A stretch of 64,000 bases of DNA from a virus, in IMG/VR virus record IMGVR_UViG_3300047550_006118, positions 4,536 to 68,535 of that record; one strand, 5' to 3'. The position numbers and the translations under genes were made by a program. Below are positions 3,558 through 56,452 of the stretch, piece after piece. Below the pieces are notes generated by a model. It was not told the DNA's origin. It made no database searches and worked only from the letters and a program-made list of their open reading frames with translations. Each line of letters opens with the position of its first letter. Position 1 is the first letter of the stretch.

Positions 3558-6500
3558 GTGGCCAGGAGTTCTGTTCAAATGTATCTCAATCATCTTGAAT
3601 CATCAAAAGAGGCCAGATTATACCAGATACTTCATACGCTAAAAAGCGTCCATGGAGTGCAGATGAACATCAATCTGGATTCAACCTCAACCGAGGATTT
3701 CCTCAACGAATGCAAATCGGCATGGGAGATCAAGAGGGATCGGATCATAGCCGAGAGCAATTTCAACAGCTATCAGCAGAATCCTGAATACATCAAGAGC
3801 ATGCTAATCCTTGAAGCCGTCAGGCTCATGCTCACGGAGATCGGACCAAAGCGCCGGCGCCGCAAGCAAATGGCCGAATCAACACTCGCAACCACGGAAG
3901 CAGACATGAACCAAGGACCAACCAACAAATTTGCCGATGATCTGGGCAAGATCGCTGAACGGATACCACAGACCAGCGAAGAAGCAACGATGTTTTCGAT
4001 AGTTCTGGCGGCCATCGCAAGAAAGGCCCAGAAGGTTGGCGCGCTTTTTGGTACGCAGGCAAAGGACTTTGACGACGACGAAAAGGCCGTGTTGGCATGG
4101 ATAAAGGGATTGCCGAGACCCATCAATGTTAATAGCATGATACAGGACGGTATCGCGAAATTTGGACCAGAATTGCTTGCCAAGAGGAAGGCCACCCTTG
4201 CCGCACAGCCAAAGATAGATCTCGGCAAGGATGACATGGAAGAGGCAGACATGAACCAAGGACCAACCAACAAATTTGCCGATGATCTGGGCAAGATTGC
4301 CGAACGGATCCCCCAGACCAGCGAAGAAGCAACGATGTTTTCAATTGTTCTAGCGTCCATCGCACGAAAGGCCCAGAAGATCGGCACGCTTTTTGGTACG
4401 CAGGCGAAGGATTTTGATGACGACGAAAAGGCCGTTCTGTCATGGATCAAGGGACTGCCGAGGCCCATCAATGTTAACAGCATGGTTCGCGACGGTATCG
4501 CGAAATTCGGACCAGAATTGCTTGCCAAGAGAAAGACCTCCCTTGCCGCACAACCGAAGATAGATCTCGGCAAGGATGACATGGAAGAGGACAAGGACCA
4601 GGACGGCGACGGTGACGAGGATTTCGCCGACGTGATGGTGGCAAGGATGACGGCAAGCGGCATGCCGAAGGGCGCCGCGATCGCCAAGACCAAGGGGAAG
4701 CCCTATAACAAGGAATCGATCTCCGAGGATGCCGATCCCGATTCACACCAGCCGCAGCCGGCACCAGCGGCCGTTAGCCCGGTCGTCGGCCAGGCACACC
4801 ATTACGAGTACCAGGCCAGCATGGCACGCAGCGAGCTTTATCGAAACAGCAAGTATGCAATGAGCATGCTAAAGCAGATCGATCCAAAGGGCGAAGTTGA
4901 GCCATGGATAGCGGGAGCGCTGACCAAGTCTGCTAACCTGCTGGATAAGGTATACCACTATCTGGATTATTACAAGAAGTTTGAACCGCAGGAGCTGCCG
5001 GAGGGCGACGAGGAGGAAGGCCTGGGCGAGACCAGCGGAGGTGTTACCCGCCAGAATCTCATGCTGATAATGGAATATTCCATCAAGCTCTTCGATATGA
5101 TCAAGCCAGGAGACAAGCTGGAAGGCTGGGTAGCCATGAAGCTAACCACCGCCAGCGAATGCGTCAGCTCCTGCAAGCATTACATGGACTACGTGCAGTT
5201 TGAGCACCATGCGATGGACAATCATTTCAGCGAAGGTAGGCGTGCAAAGAGGAAGATCACCAACGAGACCGCATACGAGCGAGATCTCGATGAAAAGAAG
5301 CCGGTCTATGCGGAATACCTGCATGGCGTCAAGAGCACCCCGAGGAAAAAGAAGTTCAGGAACTACGCCGAATACGAAAAGTGGATCGATGCTGAGGGGG
5401 ATAACGTGGAAGTCCAGAGGGTGTACAACGAATCGCGCAGCCTGATGGAGCAGGAAGATCTCGCCAAGGCCGCGACGATACTTTCCGCCAAGGACATGAG
5501 CGGCCAGATTCAGGACATAGCCGAGGACGTTGCCAAGATGAGCGTCGAGGACCTCATGCCTCTGGTTGACATGATGAGGAGCCAGTTTGGATCCGAAGCC
5601 GCCGACGGATTCAACACCACGGTTAAGACCGCCTTGGATGCCCTGTTGGATCTTTCCTCCAAGACCAAGGAGACCTTGGACAAGGCGATCGAAACCCTGA
5701 ACAGCGGCGGTGTTCCGGCTGAAACAACCGACATAGAGACCGCCGGCGAGGAACCGGAACCGAGCGCCGAGGCAGAGCCTGCCGATGATAGCGATATTTC
5801 CAAGGATCTAGCCGCCCTCGGCGGTGAGGAAGGATCTGCCGAGGAAGAGCCGGAGGCCGGAGCCGGAGAACCTCTTGGCCGTGCCAAGAAGTCGGAGGTG
5901 GCTGAATCCCTTGCAGTCGGCAAGAAGGTTAATGTTACCAATCCAAAGGCAACGCCTCGTTATGAGATCGTTAAGATCGACGGGGATAAGGTCACCCTCA
6001 AGAAGCCGGATGGTAGCGAGATGACGCTTCCAAAGGGTCGCATAATTCGTGCGAATCCCGGCCTAAGCGAGGGAAAGATTCCTGATGCCTTCAAGAAGAA
6101 CATCGAAAAGATGAAGGCCAAGGCCAAGGACAAGAAGGCCGACGACACCAAGAAGGAAGAGGTCGACGAGGCCTGGGATGCCGAGATGAAGACGGCAAAG
6201 AAGGATGTTGGCAAGTGGAAAGGCTGGACCATTAAGAAGCTCGAGGCGCGCAAGAGCGAGCTAATGTCCAAGAAAAAGAGAAACGCTGCTGAGCAAAAAG
6301 AAGTTGATCAAATCAACTTCGCCATCCGTGCCAAGCAGAAGGACAAGTGGGGTAAGATCAAGGAAGATACCGTGAATGAGGCCTCGAAGGCCGATCAGGA
6401 CATCGAAAAGGCAAAGGACGAATTCTTCAAGAAAGGCGGAATGGTTACACATGGCCCTACCAAGATTGCTAAAGGATCAAAATACCATCGTCCTGGAACC

Positions 6501-35954: not shown

Positions 35955-35983
35955 TTGACAGCGCGGCAAAAACAGCGTAACAT
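35955..35983 (+). promoter_or_regulatory. sigma70-type promoter for module 4
   Basis: TTGACA-N17-TAACAT. Confidence 0.75.
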
Positions 35984-35991
35984 GCGCTTGA

Positions 35992-36108
35992 AGGATCAGT
36001 TCAGCAACCAAAAATCAACCAACGGGTCGTGGGTTCGAGTCCCACCCGTTCCGCCAAATATGGGACGGTAGCTCAGTCGGTAGAGCAGATGGCGAAAAAG
36101 TTGATCCT
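35992..36108 (+). ncRNA. handle RNA module 4: circularly permuted tRNA-like RNA (Y-RNA/YrlA-like topology)
   Basis: AGGATCAG/TTGATCCT stem plus TTCAGCAAC. The T-arm (36029-36045) precedes the acceptor stem, which is closed by a GCCA-AATAT loop; the D-arm GCTCAGTCGGTAGAGC follows. Confidence 0.85.
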
Positions 36109-36123
36109 GTCTTGATTTAGGCG

Positions 36124-36152
36124 TTGACAGAAAACGAGAGATAGTCTAACAT
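36124..36152 (+). promoter_or_regulatory. sigma70-type promoter for modules 5-7 and the DUF2828-type gene
   Basis: TTGACA-N17-TAACAT. Confidence 0.75.
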
Positions 36153-36160
36153 ACGAGCAT

Positions 36161-36290
36161 TGGATCAGTTCAGCATACAATGGAATGTAAAATCGCCGGG
36201 AAACCTACGTTGGTGCAAGTCCAACCCCTCCCACCAATTGCGGGCAGGGTAGCCAAGCAGCAAAGGCAGCGATCCACAAAAGTTGATCCA
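36161..36290 (+). ncRNA. handle RNA module 5: circularly permuted tRNA-Tyr-derived RNA
   Basis: TGGATCAG/TTGATCCA stem plus TTCAGCATAC. Order inside: TGTAAA-ATCGC, variable arm, T-arm GTTGG-TGCAAGT-CCAAC, CCCTCCC-ACCA, linker, GGGCAGGG, D-arm, GCGAT. Confidence 0.85.
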
Positions 36291-36306
36291 GGCTAAATGA
36301 GTTAAA

Positions 36307-36392
36307 AGAATCGATTCAGCAGCTACTTAGGATGAAGCGAGGCCGCCAAAAGCGGCTTTGTGAGGATGGTTCAAATCCACCAAGTCGATTCT
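36307..36392 (+). ncRNA. handle RNA module 6
   Basis: Perfect AGAATCGA/TCGATTCT stem, TTCAGCAGC, AAG; internal GCCGC-CAAAA-GCGGC hairpin and T-loop-like TGG-TTCAAAT-CCA. Confidence 0.75.
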
Positions 36393-36403
36393 GATACAAA
36401 CAA

Positions 36404-36455
36404 AGGTTGGGTTCAGCAACCCAAAGCAATCCAAAACTGCAAACAAGTCCAACCT
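36404..36455 (+). ncRNA. handle RNA module 7 (leader of the DUF2828-type gene)
   Basis: AGGTTGGG/TCCAACCT stem, TTCAGCAAC, AAG; ends 19 nt before the ATG. Confidence 0.75.
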
Positions 36456-36474: not shown

Positions 36475-37890
36475 ATGACCACTTTCGCACAAGCAGCCCA
36501 GAACACCATGCAGCCGGGCTTTACCGCCAACGGCATGGTCACCAACCAGAGCAGCCTTGATCCAAACGTGGATCTGTTCTTCGCCATCGGCGCCAGCCGC
36601 GGCAAGGATCTCACCGGCGCCTTTGCCCGTGCCTATGCGGCCGAGCCCCACGTGGCCATGAAGATCCTCTTCTGGGCACGCGACGCCCGTGCCGGTGCCG
36701 GAGAGCGTGAAATCTTCCGCCAGATCATCCGCAACCTCGAGGTCAACCAGCCGGAGAGCCTCATGCGCAACCTTGCGCTGGTTCCGGAGTATGGTCGTTG
36801 GGACGATCTCCTGGTGTTCCGGACCCCGCAATTCAAGATGGCCGCATACGACCTCATCGCCCGTGCCCTGCGCGCCGGCAATGGCCTGGCTGCCAAGTGG
36901 ATGCCCCGCAAGGGCCCGGTCGCCAACGATCTGCGCAAGTACCTGAACTTCAACCCGAAGCAGTACCGGCGCATGATCGTCGACCTGACCAAGGTCGTGG
37001 AGACGCAGATGTGCGCCAAGGAGTGGGATCAGATCAACTACGATCACGTTCCGAGCGTGGCTGCCAACCGCTACCAGAAGGCCTTCAACAAGCGCGATGC
37101 CACCCGTTACGCGGCGTGGAAGGAGGGCCTGAAGAACGGCACCAGCAAGGTCAACGCCAGCGTTCTGTACCCCTACGACGTGCTCAAGGCCGTCGATCAC
37201 GGCGACCGTGAGGTTGCGCTGGCGCAGTGGGAGGCCCTGCCGAACTACCTCGGTGACAACGCCATACTCCCGATGGTGGACGTCAGCGGCAGCATGACCT
37301 GCCAGGTGGGCGGACAGAAGGGCGTGGAGCTGACCTGCATGCAGGTGGCCATCAGCCTGGGGCTCTACATCGCGGACAAGCAGCAGGGTTCCTTCAAGGA
37401 CATGTGGCTCACTTTCACCAACGACAGCCACATCGATGTCCTCAAGGGCGATCTGCTTGCCAAGATCAACCAGGTGCGTCGCAACGTTGGATACGACACC
37501 AACATCGAGAGCGCGTTCCGCAGCATCCTTGGGGTGGCCGTGCAGAACAACCTCCCGGCGAGCGAGATGCCCAAGTACCTCGTTGTGCTGACGGATCTCG
37601 AGTTCAACCCGGCATTTATGGGCGGAAAGTCCGTCGGTGCGTTTGAGCTGGCCACCAAGATGTTCGAGGCAGCCGGATATGAATGCCCGAAGCTGGTGTG
37701 GTGGAACCTCAATGCGCGCCCAGATGCTACCGGCAATGCACCGGTACGATTCGACCAGAATGGTACCGCACTTGTGTCTGGGTTCTCTCCGTCGATGATG
37801 AAGAGCATCCTGGCGGCGAAGAACTTCTCTCCGCGGGACGTTATGCTCGAGACGGTGATGTCCGAAAGGTATCAGGCGGTTTCAGCCTGA
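36475..37890 (+). CDS. DUF2828-type protein: helical N-domain plus vWA (Ro60/TROVE-like architecture)
   Basis: [39 protein letters not shown] and LYPYD; MIDAS motif DVSGSM; VLTD; WNL; VSGFSP. Confidence 0.85.
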
Positions 37891-39041: not shown

Positions 39042-39129
39042 ACATACCGGTAGACAAGCACGAGAAACGTGCTATAGTGCATGGGTGCTAGCAGTGATGC
39101 CGGCGCCCATTTTTTTTTGGACATGTGAC

Positions 39130-40152
39130 ATGCACAAGCTTCTCACCAGGGACCAGTTCAGGGAAGACGTGTTTGCCCGCGATCGCAATCTCTGCGTGAT
39201 CTGCGGTGCTACCGCGCAGGACGCCCACCACATCATAGAACGCAGGCTGTGGCCCGACGGCGGTTATTATCTGGCCAACGGTGCGTCCGTCTGCGGCCCC
39301 TGCCACCTTCGCTGCGAAAGCACCGAGATCTCGGTGGACGATGTCAGGCAGGCCGCCGGCATCACCAAGCCCGTGATCCCTCCGCACCTCTACCACGACG
39401 TCTCCTATGACAAGTGGGGCAACATCATCCTCGCCGACGGGCGGCGGCTGCGCGGCGAACTGTTCAATGACGCTAGCGTGCAGAAGGTGATCGCACCGGT
39501 GCTGCACCTGTTCACCGACCGCGTGAAGTATCCACGCACCCATCACCTGCCCTGGAGCCCAGGCATCACCGAGGATGATCGCGTGCTGCACGACATGTCG
39601 GTGTTCGAGGGCCGGCGCGTGATCGTCACGGAAAAGATGGATGGCGAGAACACCACCTGGTACAGGGACGGTACGCATGCCCGCAGCGTTGACGGACGGG
39701 GCCATCCCAGCCGTGACTGGTGCAAGAACCTTTGGGCAACCATCTCCGGTGAGATACCTGAGGGATGGCGCATCTGCGGCGAGAATCTCTATGCCAAGCA
39801 CTCGATCCGCTACGACGACCTTCCTACCTACTTCATGGGATTCTCCATCTGGAACGACAGGAACGAATGCCTTGGCTGGGATGACACCGTAGAGTGGTTC
39901 CAACTATTGGGAATAACATCAGTGCCGGTGATATACGACGGCATCTACGATGAAAACGCCATTAGATCACTGTATGATGTGCGGCGTGACTGGGAAACCA
40001 GGGAAGGTTACGTGCTGCGCACAGCAGACGGGTTCTCCTACGGGGATTTCAGGCGCTGCGTTGCCAAGTTCGTGAGACCAAACCACGTGGCGACCACCAA
40101 GCACTGGATGTTCGGACGCACCAACATCGAGACCAACGGGATGCGGAAATGA
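39130..40152 (+). CDS. HNH domain fused to an ATP-dependent RNA ligase domain
   Basis: N-terminal CVICG..AQDAHH...NGASVCGPCH; C-terminal KYPRT.HLPWS, TEKMDGEN (motif I), GEN, EGYVLR and AKFVR. Confidence 0.85.
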   Translation: MHKLLTRDQFREDVFARDRNLCVICGATAQDAHHIIERRLWPDGGYYLANGASVCGPCHLRCESTEISVDDVRQAAGITKPVIPPHLYHDVSYDKWGNIILADGRRLRGELFNDASVQKVIAPVLHLFTDRVKYPRTHHLPWSPGITEDDRVLHDMSVFEGRRVIVTEKMDGENTTWYRDGTHARSVDGRGHPSRDWCKNLWATISGEIPEGWRICGENLYAKHSIRYDDLPTYFMGFSIWNDRNECLGWDDTVEWFQLLGITSVPVIYDGIYDENAIRSLYDVRRDWETREGYVLRTADGFSYGDFRRCVAKFVRPNHVATTKHWMFGRTNIETNGMRK

Positions 40153-43241: not shown

Positions 43242-43301
43242 TCCCGATTGACCGATGATGGCATTCATGCTAAAATGCATGGAACCAATCGGAGAACCGC
43301 G

Positions 43302-44132
43302 ATGAGATTCCTCTTAATGTCTGACGTCCATGTTGATATGTCCCACTGGGACTGGTCGTGCCTCGATGGCGTGCCGTCGGACGTCAACGTGGCCGTGGTT
43401 GCTGGAGACGTCAGCAACGATGTGTGGCAGACCAGCCGCTGGCTGGTTGACCTCAAGAAGAGGTTTGATACCGTCGTCTGGGTCGCCGGGAACCATGATT
43501 TTTACAACATCGGGTTCCACCAGACCAGGTTATATGACCCGGAATGGTCAAAGGCCTGGCCATATCCGTCCGACGTGGCGGAGATGTATGGCCACTACCA
43601 ACGATGGAGCGATGCCAACGGTATCACGTTCCTCCATCGTCGCGCTGAGCTGATCAACGGGGTTAGGTTCATCGGTGCCACCGGATGGCATGATTTCCGG
43701 GGAGGTGAACCATACAGCACCGAGGACCAGATCAAGGTCTGGTACGACTGCCTCAATGACACCCGCATCAACTGGCAAAAGGGTCTCCTGCAACCGGACC
43801 ATCTCAAGCCGATGGATGCCGGGCTGCGTGACTGGGAGGCGATCAGCAATCTGGTCCGCGGTTCCAGCGAACCGATGGTGGTGATCACCCATCACATACC
43901 ACATCGTCGCTTCCTGTGGCAAAAACCACATGATCGGATATGGACCATGCTGCATGGCAGCTTCGTCAACACCAGGATGGAAAGCATCGTCGATCCAAAC
44001 ATCAAGTATTGGCTCTACGGGCATACCCACCAACGAGGGATGATGGACATCGGCAGCACGACCTACGTGTGCAATGCCAAGGGTTACCAGGGCGAAAACC
44101 CAAGATGGGAACCGCTGATCCTCGAGGTGTAA
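43302..44132 (+). CDS. calcineurin-like metallophosphoesterase
   Basis: SDVH, AGD, GNHD, THH and GHTH motifs. Confidence 0.92.
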   Translation: MRFLLMSDVHVDMSHWDWSCLDGVPSDVNVAVVAGDVSNDVWQTSRWLVDLKKRFDTVVWVAGNHDFYNIGFHQTRLYDPEWSKAWPYPSDVAEMYGHYQRWSDANGITFLHRRAELINGVRFIGATGWHDFRGGEPYSTEDQIKVWYDCLNDTRINWQKGLLQPDHLKPMDAGLRDWEAISNLVRGSSEPMVVITHHIPHRRFLWQKPHDRIWTMLHGSFVNTRMESIVDPNIKYWLYGHTHQRGMMDIGSTTYVCNAKGYQGENPRWEPLILEV

Positions 44133-55599: not shown

Positions 55600-56452
55600 T
55601 TCTTTGAAAAATGAAAATTGGGGGCATGGCCCCATTAGGATAAGCCAGGTAACTGGCCCAAAGCTGGAAATCCTACGTACCAGCGTCACGCAAGTGATCC
55701 GTCCATGCAAGCTCGAGCCTGCCCGAAAGGGCCCATCACTAGAGGTGGTGGATATTCCGAAGGCTGGGCTGGGGTCCGAAAGGACGGGTGCAGAGCCGAT
55801 CGGTGAGCACCAAAGGAGCCGCAACTCCTGCCCCGGCACGCAACCCAGTCCAAGATGAATGGCTAACGGGTAGTCCGGTCAGTCCGAGGTTCGCAGCCGA
55901 GGGCAACGGGCAATGTGATGGGTATCGGGCCGAGAGGCACGCTATCCGGAAACGTGGTCGAGTACCTCGCAAGGGGAATGACATGAGGTGTGTTGTATTG
56001 GGTCGGTGGAAACACTGATTCAGCAACAGGGGCAGCACATCTTGGTAGGTTTGCAATGTAGCTCATTGGTAGAGCATCTGTCTCCAAAACAGACTGTAGT
56101 TGGTTCAAATCCAACCATAGGAAAAAGCAAAGACTGCCCCGGTTACGTGTGTAAGGCGTCAAATGCCATGCCCGCAAGGGAACATGGTCCAGCTGAGCCC
56201 GCAAGGCAAGGTTGGTTCATCGCAGATGATTCGTAGAGGCTTAGCGGCTTCGAACTACCCGCAAGGTAGGCGGATAGGAAACGGTGGAGTAGCACGTAGT
56301 GACGGACCAAATGCCAGGTCCCTAAACAAGGCGACGCTGTTGGTGGACTTGATGACCGCAAGGCATCAGGTGGATAACGGGAGAAGGCCGCCCGCAAGGT
56401 GGTTGATAATGCCCAAGGCACTGACACAGGAACTGTAATCTCAGGTTTCTAC
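55600..56452 (+). ncRNA. large structured ncRNA, GOLLD-like
   Basis: ~850 nt with no credible ORF between promoter and terminator; many GNRA hairpins (six CGCAAG-loop copies, GGAAAC, CGAAAG); embedded tRNA-like element. The family name is inferred from size, architecture and context. Confidence 0.7.
56052..56123 (+). tRNA. tRNA-Trp(CCA)-like element with a mismatched acceptor stem, inside the large ncRNA
   Basis: D-arm GCTCATTGGTAGAGC; anticodon arm TCTGT-CTCCAAA-ACAGA; T-arm GTTGG-TTCAAAT-CCAAC; acceptor TGCAATG/CATAGGA has 2 mismatches and no encoded CCA. Confidence 0.7.

Follow-up and report, generated by a model that had tools for sequence, protein, structure and literature searches.

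Y RNAs of the YrlA type are encoded near genes for Ro60-type proteins and on the same strand. Their 5' and 3' ends form a terminal stem, which encloses a T-arm, an acceptor-like hairpin and a D-arm in this order, with the nucleotides of the tRNA elbow and without an anticodon loop; a locus may contain more than one Y-like RNA, and some phages are known to carry YrlA. All these features recur in RNA1, the subject of this work, which lies upstream of a Ro60-like gene in a stretch of 64,000 nucleotides (nt) from a viral genome (IMG/VR record IMGVR_UViG_3300047550_006118, positions 4,536 to 68,535; this whole stretch is hereafter called the window). According to the interpretation that we favour, with a probability of roughly 0.6, RNA1 is a Y-RNA-like partner RNA of the Ro60-like protein of this phage, probably maturing into two pieces.

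YrlA differs from RNA1 in several respects. Its partner is an annotated TROVE protein, its 5' motif is GNCGAA(N)G, and its acceptor hairpin is closed by a short loop, whereas RNA1 accompanies a protein of the DUF2828/DUF7788 type, has the 5' motif U-N-C-A-G-C-A-A, and possesses a 7-bp acceptor with an encoded GCCA and a linker behind it. The YrlA of Mycobacterium smegmatis is the one YrlA with a 7-bp stem: ribonuclease P (RNase P) cuts it in vitro and in vivo, the cut RNA receives CCA, both halves stay on Rsr, and aminoacylation has been proposed as possible (PMC4201824, available sections). YrlA RNAs otherwise have no free CCA, and most are described as closed and as poor RNase P substrates, according to the accessible text of a preprint (bioRxiv 10.1101/312249). 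RNA1 shares with the M. smegmatis RNA the 7-bp acceptor stem and, as we propose, the fate of two halves. However, CA is added to the latter after cleavage, while the whole GCCA is encoded in RNA1; moreover, the M. smegmatis RNA is the product of a bacterial gene, in the available description of which G3.U70 is not mentioned, while RNA1 comes from a phage gene and its processing is predicted (PMC4201824).

Several phages carry comparable loci. Thermus phage phiLo encodes a Ro60 homolog with Yrl1 and Yrl2 directly upstream, as in the window; these RNAs were chosen by a CGAA motif and, in contrast to RNA1, are not described as tRNA-like in the available part of the paper (PMC12135203). The Ro60-like protein gp130 of coliphage Bas63 (Felixounavirus) counters the ppl defence (bioRxiv 10.1101/2024.10.10.617714), and three highly transcribed non-coding regions are located at most 2 kb upstream of the Rsr-like gene CKA15_055 of Listeria phage CKA15 (PMC12282133). 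As far as the accessible portions of these two reports go, Y RNAs near gp130 and CKA15_055 are merely guessed, and the RNAs are undefined. Both genes adjoin tRNA genes or highly transcribed non-coding regions. The likeness of gp130 and CKA15_055 to the protein studied here is drawn via relatives only, namely the phages VpaE1 and LP-048, which carry DUF2828 homologs and RNAs of the RNA1 family.

RNA1 and the neighbouring Ro60-like gene

RNA1 (Table 1) is bounded by two complementary strands, whose 7-bp terminal stem we call, together with the adjoining UUCAGCAA motif, the handle. An A-rich spacer separates the motif from the first strand of an anticodon-like stem, and a 5-nt equivalent of the variable loop leads to the T-arm; then follow the 3' strand of the acceptor, GCCA, the linker, the 5' strand of the acceptor, and the D-arm. 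All seven acceptor pairs are formed, with G3 (36064) opposite U70 (36050), and the nucleotides of the tRNA elbow are complete (U8, A14, G18 G19, A21, T54 T55 C56, and A58). A preliminary description of this DNA had listed the same elements, and each of them can be read from the sequence at the place given there. It had also likened the body to tRNA-Asn/Lys, and the lysine half of this comparison stands: contigs of genuine tRNA-Lys(UUU) from two sequencing runs align to 36062-36087 and 36025-36045, in normal tRNA order. Its view of RNA1 as a stand-alone mimic had to be abandoned, as it had overlooked that RNA1 has a handle and a Ro60-like partner and belongs to a family. RNA1 has no anticodon loop and ends at the handle, not at the acceptor stem. 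ARAGORN calls neither a tRNA nor a tmRNA (transfer-messenger RNA) at RNA1, and no open reading frame of at least 50 aa overlaps it. Folded as a single sequence, RNA1 is unremarkable (z = -1.85; 10 of 200 shuffles fold equally well).

The Ro60-like gene lies 368 nt beyond the end of RNA1 on the same strand. Pfam finds only DUF2828 and DUF7788 in its product (E = 2.7e-31 and 4.4e-37). A structure model was obtained with 19 homologs (pLDDT 79, pTM 0.76), and its top 13 Foldseek matches in the PDB are all Ro60/TROVE proteins (E from 3e-10 to 2e-5, TM 0.47-0.58), including Xenopus Ro60, Deinococcus Rsr and the Ro60 of Thermus phage phiLo; plain vWA domains rank below. The phiLo protein is the top structural match (9kop, 9l5y) at approximately 14-15% identity, while phmmer against PDB sequences yielded no match to Ro60 chains and nothing useful. 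As judged from the model, the product has a Ro60-like fold, in favour of the comparison with YrlA in the preliminary description. Homologs of the protein were found by tblastn in 703 phage records, among them Felix O1-like coliphages (Felixounaviruses) and P100-like Listeria phages. The gene itself appears interrupted in L042-L045, which are among the closest relatives: its match extends over approximately 1700 nt for 469 residues in L042:528-2230 and L043:2501-4203, and in L044 and L045 begins at residue 112, approximately 900 nt past the apparent first part of the gene. These patterns point to inserted sequence, either an intron or a homing-endonuclease element.

In the mechanism that we propose, the handle would be the part of RNA1 that binds the Ro60-like ring, with its counterparts in the GNCGAA motif of YrlA and, in animal Y RNAs, the GGUCCGA helix; binding of the handle by the Ro60-like protein is very probable. 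The body between the handle strands, a circular permutation of a tRNA-Lys-like molecule that runs from the T-arm through the acceptor to the D-arm, would expose a tRNA-shaped surface that may recruit or decoy some tRNA-binding factor. Host RNase P is predicted, from the rules for tRNA and the case of M. smegmatis YrlA, to cut between 36061 and 36062, after which 3' trimming would proceed back to the CCA ending at 36056. The resulting RNA would consist of two pieces, with the acceptor stem, handle and elbow holding them together.

Table 1. Features of the RNA1 locus and the tmRNA gene; positions are those of the window
Feature	Position	Strand	Remarks
Sigma-70-like promoter, TTGACA-17-TAACAT	TTGACA 35955-35960, TAACAT 35978-35983	+	10/12 matches; start at approximately 35990-35993
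RNA1, handle RNA with permuted tRNA-like (YrlA-type) module	35993-36107	+	Sequence reading and covariance model R1
Handle 5' strand, 7 nt	35993-35999	+	Pairs with 36101-36107
Conserved motif UUCAGCAA	36000-36007	+	Directly 3' of the handle 5' strand
Anticodon-like stem	36019-36023 with 36088-36092	+	4/5 pairs; opens into the 7-bp terminal stem
T-arm	Stem 36029-36033, loop TTCGAGT 36034-36040, stem 36041-36045	+	5-bp stem, 7-nt loop
Acceptor 3' strand, CCGTTCC	36046-36052	+	
Encoded GCCA	36053-36056	+	Directly 3' of the acceptor 3' strand
Linker AATAT, 5 nt, U-ending	36057-36061	+	
Acceptor 5' strand, GGGACGG	36062-36068	+	
U8 A9	36069-36070	+	
D-arm, GCTC / AGTCGGTA / GAGC	36071-36086	+	4-bp stem; loop contains G18 G19
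Handle 3' strand	36101-36107	+	Preceded by an A-rich stretch
Second promoter-like site, same hexamers	36124-36152	+	Before RNA2
RNA2, handle RNA with permuted tRNA-like module	36162-36289	+	Model R1: 45.4 bits, E = 1.5e-6
RNA3, handle RNA	36308-36391	+	Hairpin and T-arm-like element adjoining the 3' handle strand
RNA4, short handle hairpin	36405-36454	+	Directly 5' of the ribosome-binding site of the Ro60-like gene
Ro60-like protein, 471 aa	36475-37890	+	DUF2828 and DUF7788 (helical-repeat ring and vWA domain)
Two-piece (permuted, alpha-type) tmRNA, tag ANDNVAFEEVRLAA	23441-23828		ARAGORN

A family of handle RNAs

Four RNAs with common ends stand in tandem upstream of the Ro60-like gene (RNA1 to RNA4, Table 1). 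RNA2 has eroded T and D loops and an acceptor with a single mismatch or bulge; ACCA follows this acceptor. The handle RNA design consists of a 7-bp stem, the motif U-N-C-N-G-C-A directly after its 5' strand, and an A-rich run before its 3' strand; RNA1 possesses all three. Loci encoding relatives of the protein (39 viral and 76 metagenomic) were filtered for a match reaching the N-terminus and at least 400 nt of upstream sequence, and identical upstream stretches were collapsed, which left 68 loci. In 50 of these, at least one handle RNA was found within 400 nt upstream on the strand of the gene (89 handles in total), while the reverse strand of the same 68 loci gave none and shuffled sequence one. 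Most of the handle loci are situated within tRNA gene arrays. The closest relatives of the protein (L041-L045, 75-79% identity) have no copies of RNA1 or RNA2 directly upstream of the gene; orthologs of these RNAs were found 1-2 kb from it.

Unannotated handle RNAs are also present near the homologous gene in all seven cultured phages inspected: E. coli phage VpaE1, Rhizobium phage RHph_I1_18, Ralstonia phage RSP15, Sinorhizobium phage phiM19, mycobacteriophage LeBron, Listeria phage LP-048, and Synechococcus phage B23. Those of LeBron and LP-048 were read by eye, the scripted motif (U two bases before CAGCA) having matched none there. In Escherichia phage vB_EcoM-VpaE1 (L240:4228-5003), four of them lie between tRNA genes, downstream of a gene annotated as 'RNA-binding protein', and the last (4881-5003) contains a closed-loop permuted tRNA-like module. 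No description of the handle motif or of the subclass with encoded NCCA, discussed below, was found in the literature searched, though Chen et al. (2014) list 22 YrlA-bearing phages, which may include some of ours; the papers retrieved on DUF2828 concern, by their titles and the beginnings of their abstracts, plants or a tardigrade, and none of them RNA.

For a closer comparison, 28 distinct permuted tRNA-like handle RNAs were parsed (RNA1, RNA2 and 26 RNAs of other loci); two candidates from L029, whose handle was not found, were omitted, and the script set the acceptors of two of the parsed RNAs in a wrong register. The motif T-N-C-N-G-C-A follows the 7-bp stem in all 28. Pairing is observed in 195 of 196 cells of the handle, 139 of 140 of the T stem, and 186 of 196 of the acceptor. 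When the 22 members from outside the window were aligned with MAFFT, RNAalifold returned exactly the T-arm, the 7-bp acceptor and the D-arm, with compensatory changes at 15 of 16 pairs. In this alignment 94.5% of the cells are paired, compared to 63.6% in shuffles and 34-47% in slid registers, and the covariation score is 0.818 versus 0.231 in shuffles, none of the 500 shuffles being equally high. A covariance model built from these 22 RNAs (R1) finds RNA1 at full length (35993-36108, 91.8 bits, E = 5.5e-15) and, besides it, only RNA2 below E = 0.1 in the 64 kb, the E-values being rough. The seeds of R1 were picked by our own scanner, so that the model mirrors the scanner's criteria, and sequences of the window were excluded from them. 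As such a window-free model detects RNA1 at this score, RNA1 goes beyond chance.

The inserts between the handle strands are of several kinds: short hairpins, nearly always in the gene-proximal copy; permuted tRNA-like modules; tRNA-like bodies in normal order, where the handle replaces the acceptor stem; and larger modules, described below. Bodies in normal order were observed in L025:2037-2126 (D-arm, anticodon arm with UUU, and T-arm), L019:325-424, L021:704-799, and the window (36308-36391). Among the larger modules, one of approximately 150 nt recurs in L006:2767-2914, L016:2769-2916 and L005:2581-2731, and one of approximately 210 nt in L004:2693-2910, L033:2634-2843 and L026:2051-2265. 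Both contain conserved blocks and T-loop-like hairpins (GAGTTTCGA...), and neither was assigned to an Rfam family at the gathering score among the matches listed. In 20 related loci the same search gave, among the matches listed, only tRNA, one GOLLD RNA and one permuted tmRNA. In L016 a permuted tmRNA (5613-6133) is located approximately 1.2 kb downstream of the Ro60-like gene; thus, there is a tendency for handle RNAs to occur together with tmRNA and tRNA arrays.

Maturation, charging and rival explanations

NCCA directly follows the 7-bp acceptor in 10 of the 28 parsed RNAs, N being always a purine; the loops of these RNAs are 8-19 nt long, and U stands at position -1 in seven. The remaining 18 RNAs have no NCCA, and their loops are mostly of 3-7 nt, one with an extended hairpin. 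Two additional NCCA members were found in Ralstonia phage RSP15 and Sinorhizobium phage phiM19 (the latter at L241:335-456). NCCA is retained in three pairs of orthologs despite differing stems or linkers: RNA2 and L043:412-549 (where ACCA is kept), L061 and L095, and L019:1093 and L021:2751, whose acceptor stems are wholly different. The substrates preferred by bacterial RNase P combine RCCA and a U leader with a 7-bp stem that stacks on a T-arm. When the predicted pieces of RNA1 are folded jointly, the energy is -36.4 kcal/mol, compared to -12.9 and -8.0 kcal/mol for each piece alone; the two would therefore stay together.

The acceptor of RNA1 comprises G1-C72, G2-C71 and G3.U70, with G73 as the discriminator. 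Six of its seven pairs are identical to those of the two-piece tmRNA encoded by the same phage (GGGGCGG with CCGCTCC). The preliminary description had pointed to this tmRNA as a parallel, and the parallel is sound: in both RNAs the T-arm, the acceptor 3' strand, RCCA, an intervening stretch and the acceptor 5' strand follow one another in permuted order, with G3.U70 and a U before the 5' G, the tmRNA having ACCA and a U at -1 before GGGG. In contrast to the tmRNA, RNA1 has no tag reading frame or pseudoknots, possesses a D-arm, and has 5 nt between CCA and G+1. It is not a tmRNA by the searches made: the tmRNA_permuted model gives 19.9 bits against 47, and ARAGORN finds in the window only the tmRNA listed in Table 1. 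An almost equal acceptor (GGGACTG with CGGTTCC, G3.U70, then ACCA) occurs in L025:2573-2693, the T- and D-arms of which are unlike those of RNA1. Moreover, a contig from an RNA library matches 36023-36109 with one difference (G36053A, which makes A73) and different flanks, and all six phage tRNA-Ala genes inspected share the first three pairs of RNA1 and encode ACCA. A loose version of the acceptor pattern matched at least 120 viral contigs, but the 80 loci examined were all chance matches in coding-like DNA without a T-arm, and the pattern was rejected. A tighter version retrieved from IMG/VR, in a scan that may leave out the window's own record, only the contig of L025 (as L237) and one chance match (L213).

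Several observations weigh against the favoured interpretation, some against the kinship with Y RNAs and others against the cleavage. The Rfam YrlA model (RF02553) matches 36023-36088 with E = 8e-6 and 36 bits, compared to a gathering score of 69, which no hit in the window reaches; the match covers positions 25-83 of 114 of the model, i.e. the tRNA-like core only, and agrees with the T-acceptor-D topology that had earlier been called YrlA-type. The 5' part of RNA1 contains UUCAGCAA in place of the YrlA motif GNCGAA(N0-1)G, the nearest look-alike being GGCGAA on the 3' side (36091-36096). RNA1 probably acts like a YrlA-type Y RNA, but it lacks the YrlA motif and scores below the Rfam threshold, and its partner belongs to the DUF2828 branch of Ro60-like proteins. 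A Ro60-like fold by itself is no proof of RNA binding, and the four sequencing runs compared consist of contigs, from which starts, ends and levels of transcripts are not readable. In the closest ortholog of RNA1 (L041:127-236), whose T-arm, D-arm and flanks are nearly the same and whose neighbouring Ro60-like protein is 75% identical, the acceptor stem, again of 7 bp but of another sequence, ends in a GAAA loop and has no CCA; similarly, CCA is retained in L071 but lost from its ortholog L018. The open CCA end is therefore dispensable for the core function. Finally, CCA is encoded in all 13 phage tRNA-Ala and tRNA-Lys genes inspected, so that NCCA may have been inherited with a captured acceptor arm from a tRNA-like source rather than selected. 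These last points would also fit an uncut, closed-loop, one-piece YrlA-like mimic, in which GCCA and G3.U70 are functionless leftovers of a tRNA or tmRNA, as would the predominance of closed loops in the family (18/28) and the closed state of most YrlA RNAs. We give this explanation a minor, though real, share of the probability, as it accounts poorly for NCCA in 10 of 28 RNAs (1 in 64 would be expected for three fixed bases), for its absence from loops shorter than 8 nt, for its conservation in three ortholog pairs, and for the frequent U at -1; the stem, RCCA and U leader fit the preference of RNase P, and M. smegmatis YrlA provides a precedent. The opening of the loop by RNase P, suggested in the preliminary description, is thus backed by this precedent and the NCCA subclass and weakened by the closed, CCA-less nearest ortholog; two-piece cleavage of RNA1 is plausible, with chances slightly better than even.

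The preliminary description had gone further, to a chargeable two-piece RNA. Processed RNA1 might then be a substrate of host alanyl-tRNA synthetase (AlaRS), and the Ro60-like particle would carry an alanylated tRNA-like arm, which could shield the 3' end, interact with EF-Tu or the ribosome, or decoy tRNA-targeting defences. G3.U70 with its two preceding pairs, the acceptor one pair away from that of the phage's own tmRNA, the same design with A73 and CCA in the otherwise dissimilar L025 RNA, the library relative with A73, the tRNA-Ala genes, and the proposal made for M. smegmatis YrlA all speak for it. However, G3.U70 and NCCA occur jointly in only two of the 10 NCCA-class RNAs, and G.U at 3:70 is also found in the closed-loop members L025:1910 and L047:2255, i.e. 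it arises without a free end; the design was rare in the IMG/VR scan and is wholly absent from the ortholog in L041; and the discriminator of RNA1 is G, compared to A in tRNA-Ala and tmRNA. Thus, G3.U70 and the tmRNA-like acceptor stand, while judging by the sequence charging of RNA1 is unlikely. It is even less likely that the handles are autoregulatory sites rather than discrete RNAs, with the Ro60-like protein binding to them in the extended 5' leader of its own mRNA. No terminator-like site was found on the plus strand from 35993 to the start of the gene, and a short handle hairpin precedes the ribosome-binding site here and in most related loci, as this explanation would have it. On the other hand, the handle RNAs of VpaE1, LeBron and RSP15 are located downstream of the gene among tRNA genes, those of phiM19 and L041 are 1-2.5 kb from it, RNA1 and RNA2 have separate promoter-like sites, and an operator would not need the strong covariation of the tRNA-like modules. 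Scarcely credible is a decayed tandem or split tRNA with its 5' half in RNA1 (from 36062), its 3' half in RNA2 (to 36233) and a 99-nt insert. The Rfam tRNA model does score 32.1 bits at 36062-36233 (gathering 29), and in blastn 36025-36091 matches junctions of adjacent phage tRNA genes at 80-84% identity. Nevertheless, a single intron-bearing tRNA at 36062-36233 was rejected: the insert would contain a promoter-like site, the composite acceptor is mismatched while that of RNA1 is fully paired, the almost invariably paired handles enclose the permuted unit, and ARAGORN calls no tRNA here. The resemblance of tandem tRNAs to YrlA has already been cautioned about by Chen et al. (PMC4201824, available sections).

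Surroundings of the locus and implications

The viral record (68.5 kb, estimated to be 15% complete) belongs to a large freshwater phage. The window also encodes a tail-sheath-like protein, ribonucleotide reductase, topoisomerase II subunits, ClpX and CTP synthase, and further contains the two-piece tmRNA and a GOLLD RNA. The sigma-70 promoter earlier ascribed to RNA1 is present as a TTGACA/TAACAT match ending 9 nt upstream of it, its strength being that of a consensus match only, as three promoter-like sites were found in the region compared to 1.7 +/- 1.3 in shuffles. Genes of RNA-repair type are located near the Ro60-like gene, namely an HNH-RNA ligase fusion and a metallophosphoesterase (window 39085-40152 and 43248-44132), the HNH-RNA ligase gene being 1.2 kb beyond it, and in Listeria phage LP-048 an RtcB-like ligase gene is near the Ro60-like gene (L243:5852-7063). 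The GOLLD RNA (55985-56447, 181.8 bits) contains a tRNA-Trp-like element at 56051-56124; the close relative L043 has a GOLLD RNA too, approximately 2 kb downstream of the Ro60-like gene (5958-6415). In the window's GOLLD RNA a handle motif, GATTCAGCAAC, is found towards the 5' end, at 56017, but no complementary strand was found when sought, and it was rejected as a handle. Across the whole window the number of handle motifs does not exceed chance (5 versus 2.2 expected; 5 of 100 shuffles reach 5). Two contigs of the RNA-library run X11 are identical to 36204-36444 and 36555-36804, possibly by DNA carry-over; no contig of this run covers RNA1, an absence that is uninformative in either direction. 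Run X19, which is probably DNA, spans 36002-36140, interrupted in the D-loop region by a gap of 2 bases.

Y RNAs mimicking tRNA and a few phage homologs of Ro60 were already known. What is new is a defined, structured and unannotated RNA family with a common handle and exchangeable tRNA-derived inserts, which accompanies the DUF2828 type of Ro60-like protein. How RNA1 is built, its place in this family, the association with the gene and the fold of the neighbouring protein are established; its binding, cleavage and charging are inferred. Felix O1-like coliphages are among its carriers; the defence role reported for Bas63 in the available part of that preprint concerns gp130, the DUF2828 membership of which is presumed from relatives. 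The subclass with a 7-bp acceptor, encoded CCA and U leader bears on the question of tRNA-like maturation and charging of Y RNAs, which dates from 2014. It is rather doubtful, a little more so than charging taken alone, that NCCA-class RNAs are matured by RNase P and 3' trimming, RNA1 being charged by AlaRS and borne on the Ro60-like particle. If this were true, they would represent a new class of charged non-coding RNA, an aminoacylated tRNA arm without an anticodon, and the particle could serve as a decoy or sensor for tRNA-attacking host defences, or reach EF-Tu or the ribosome.

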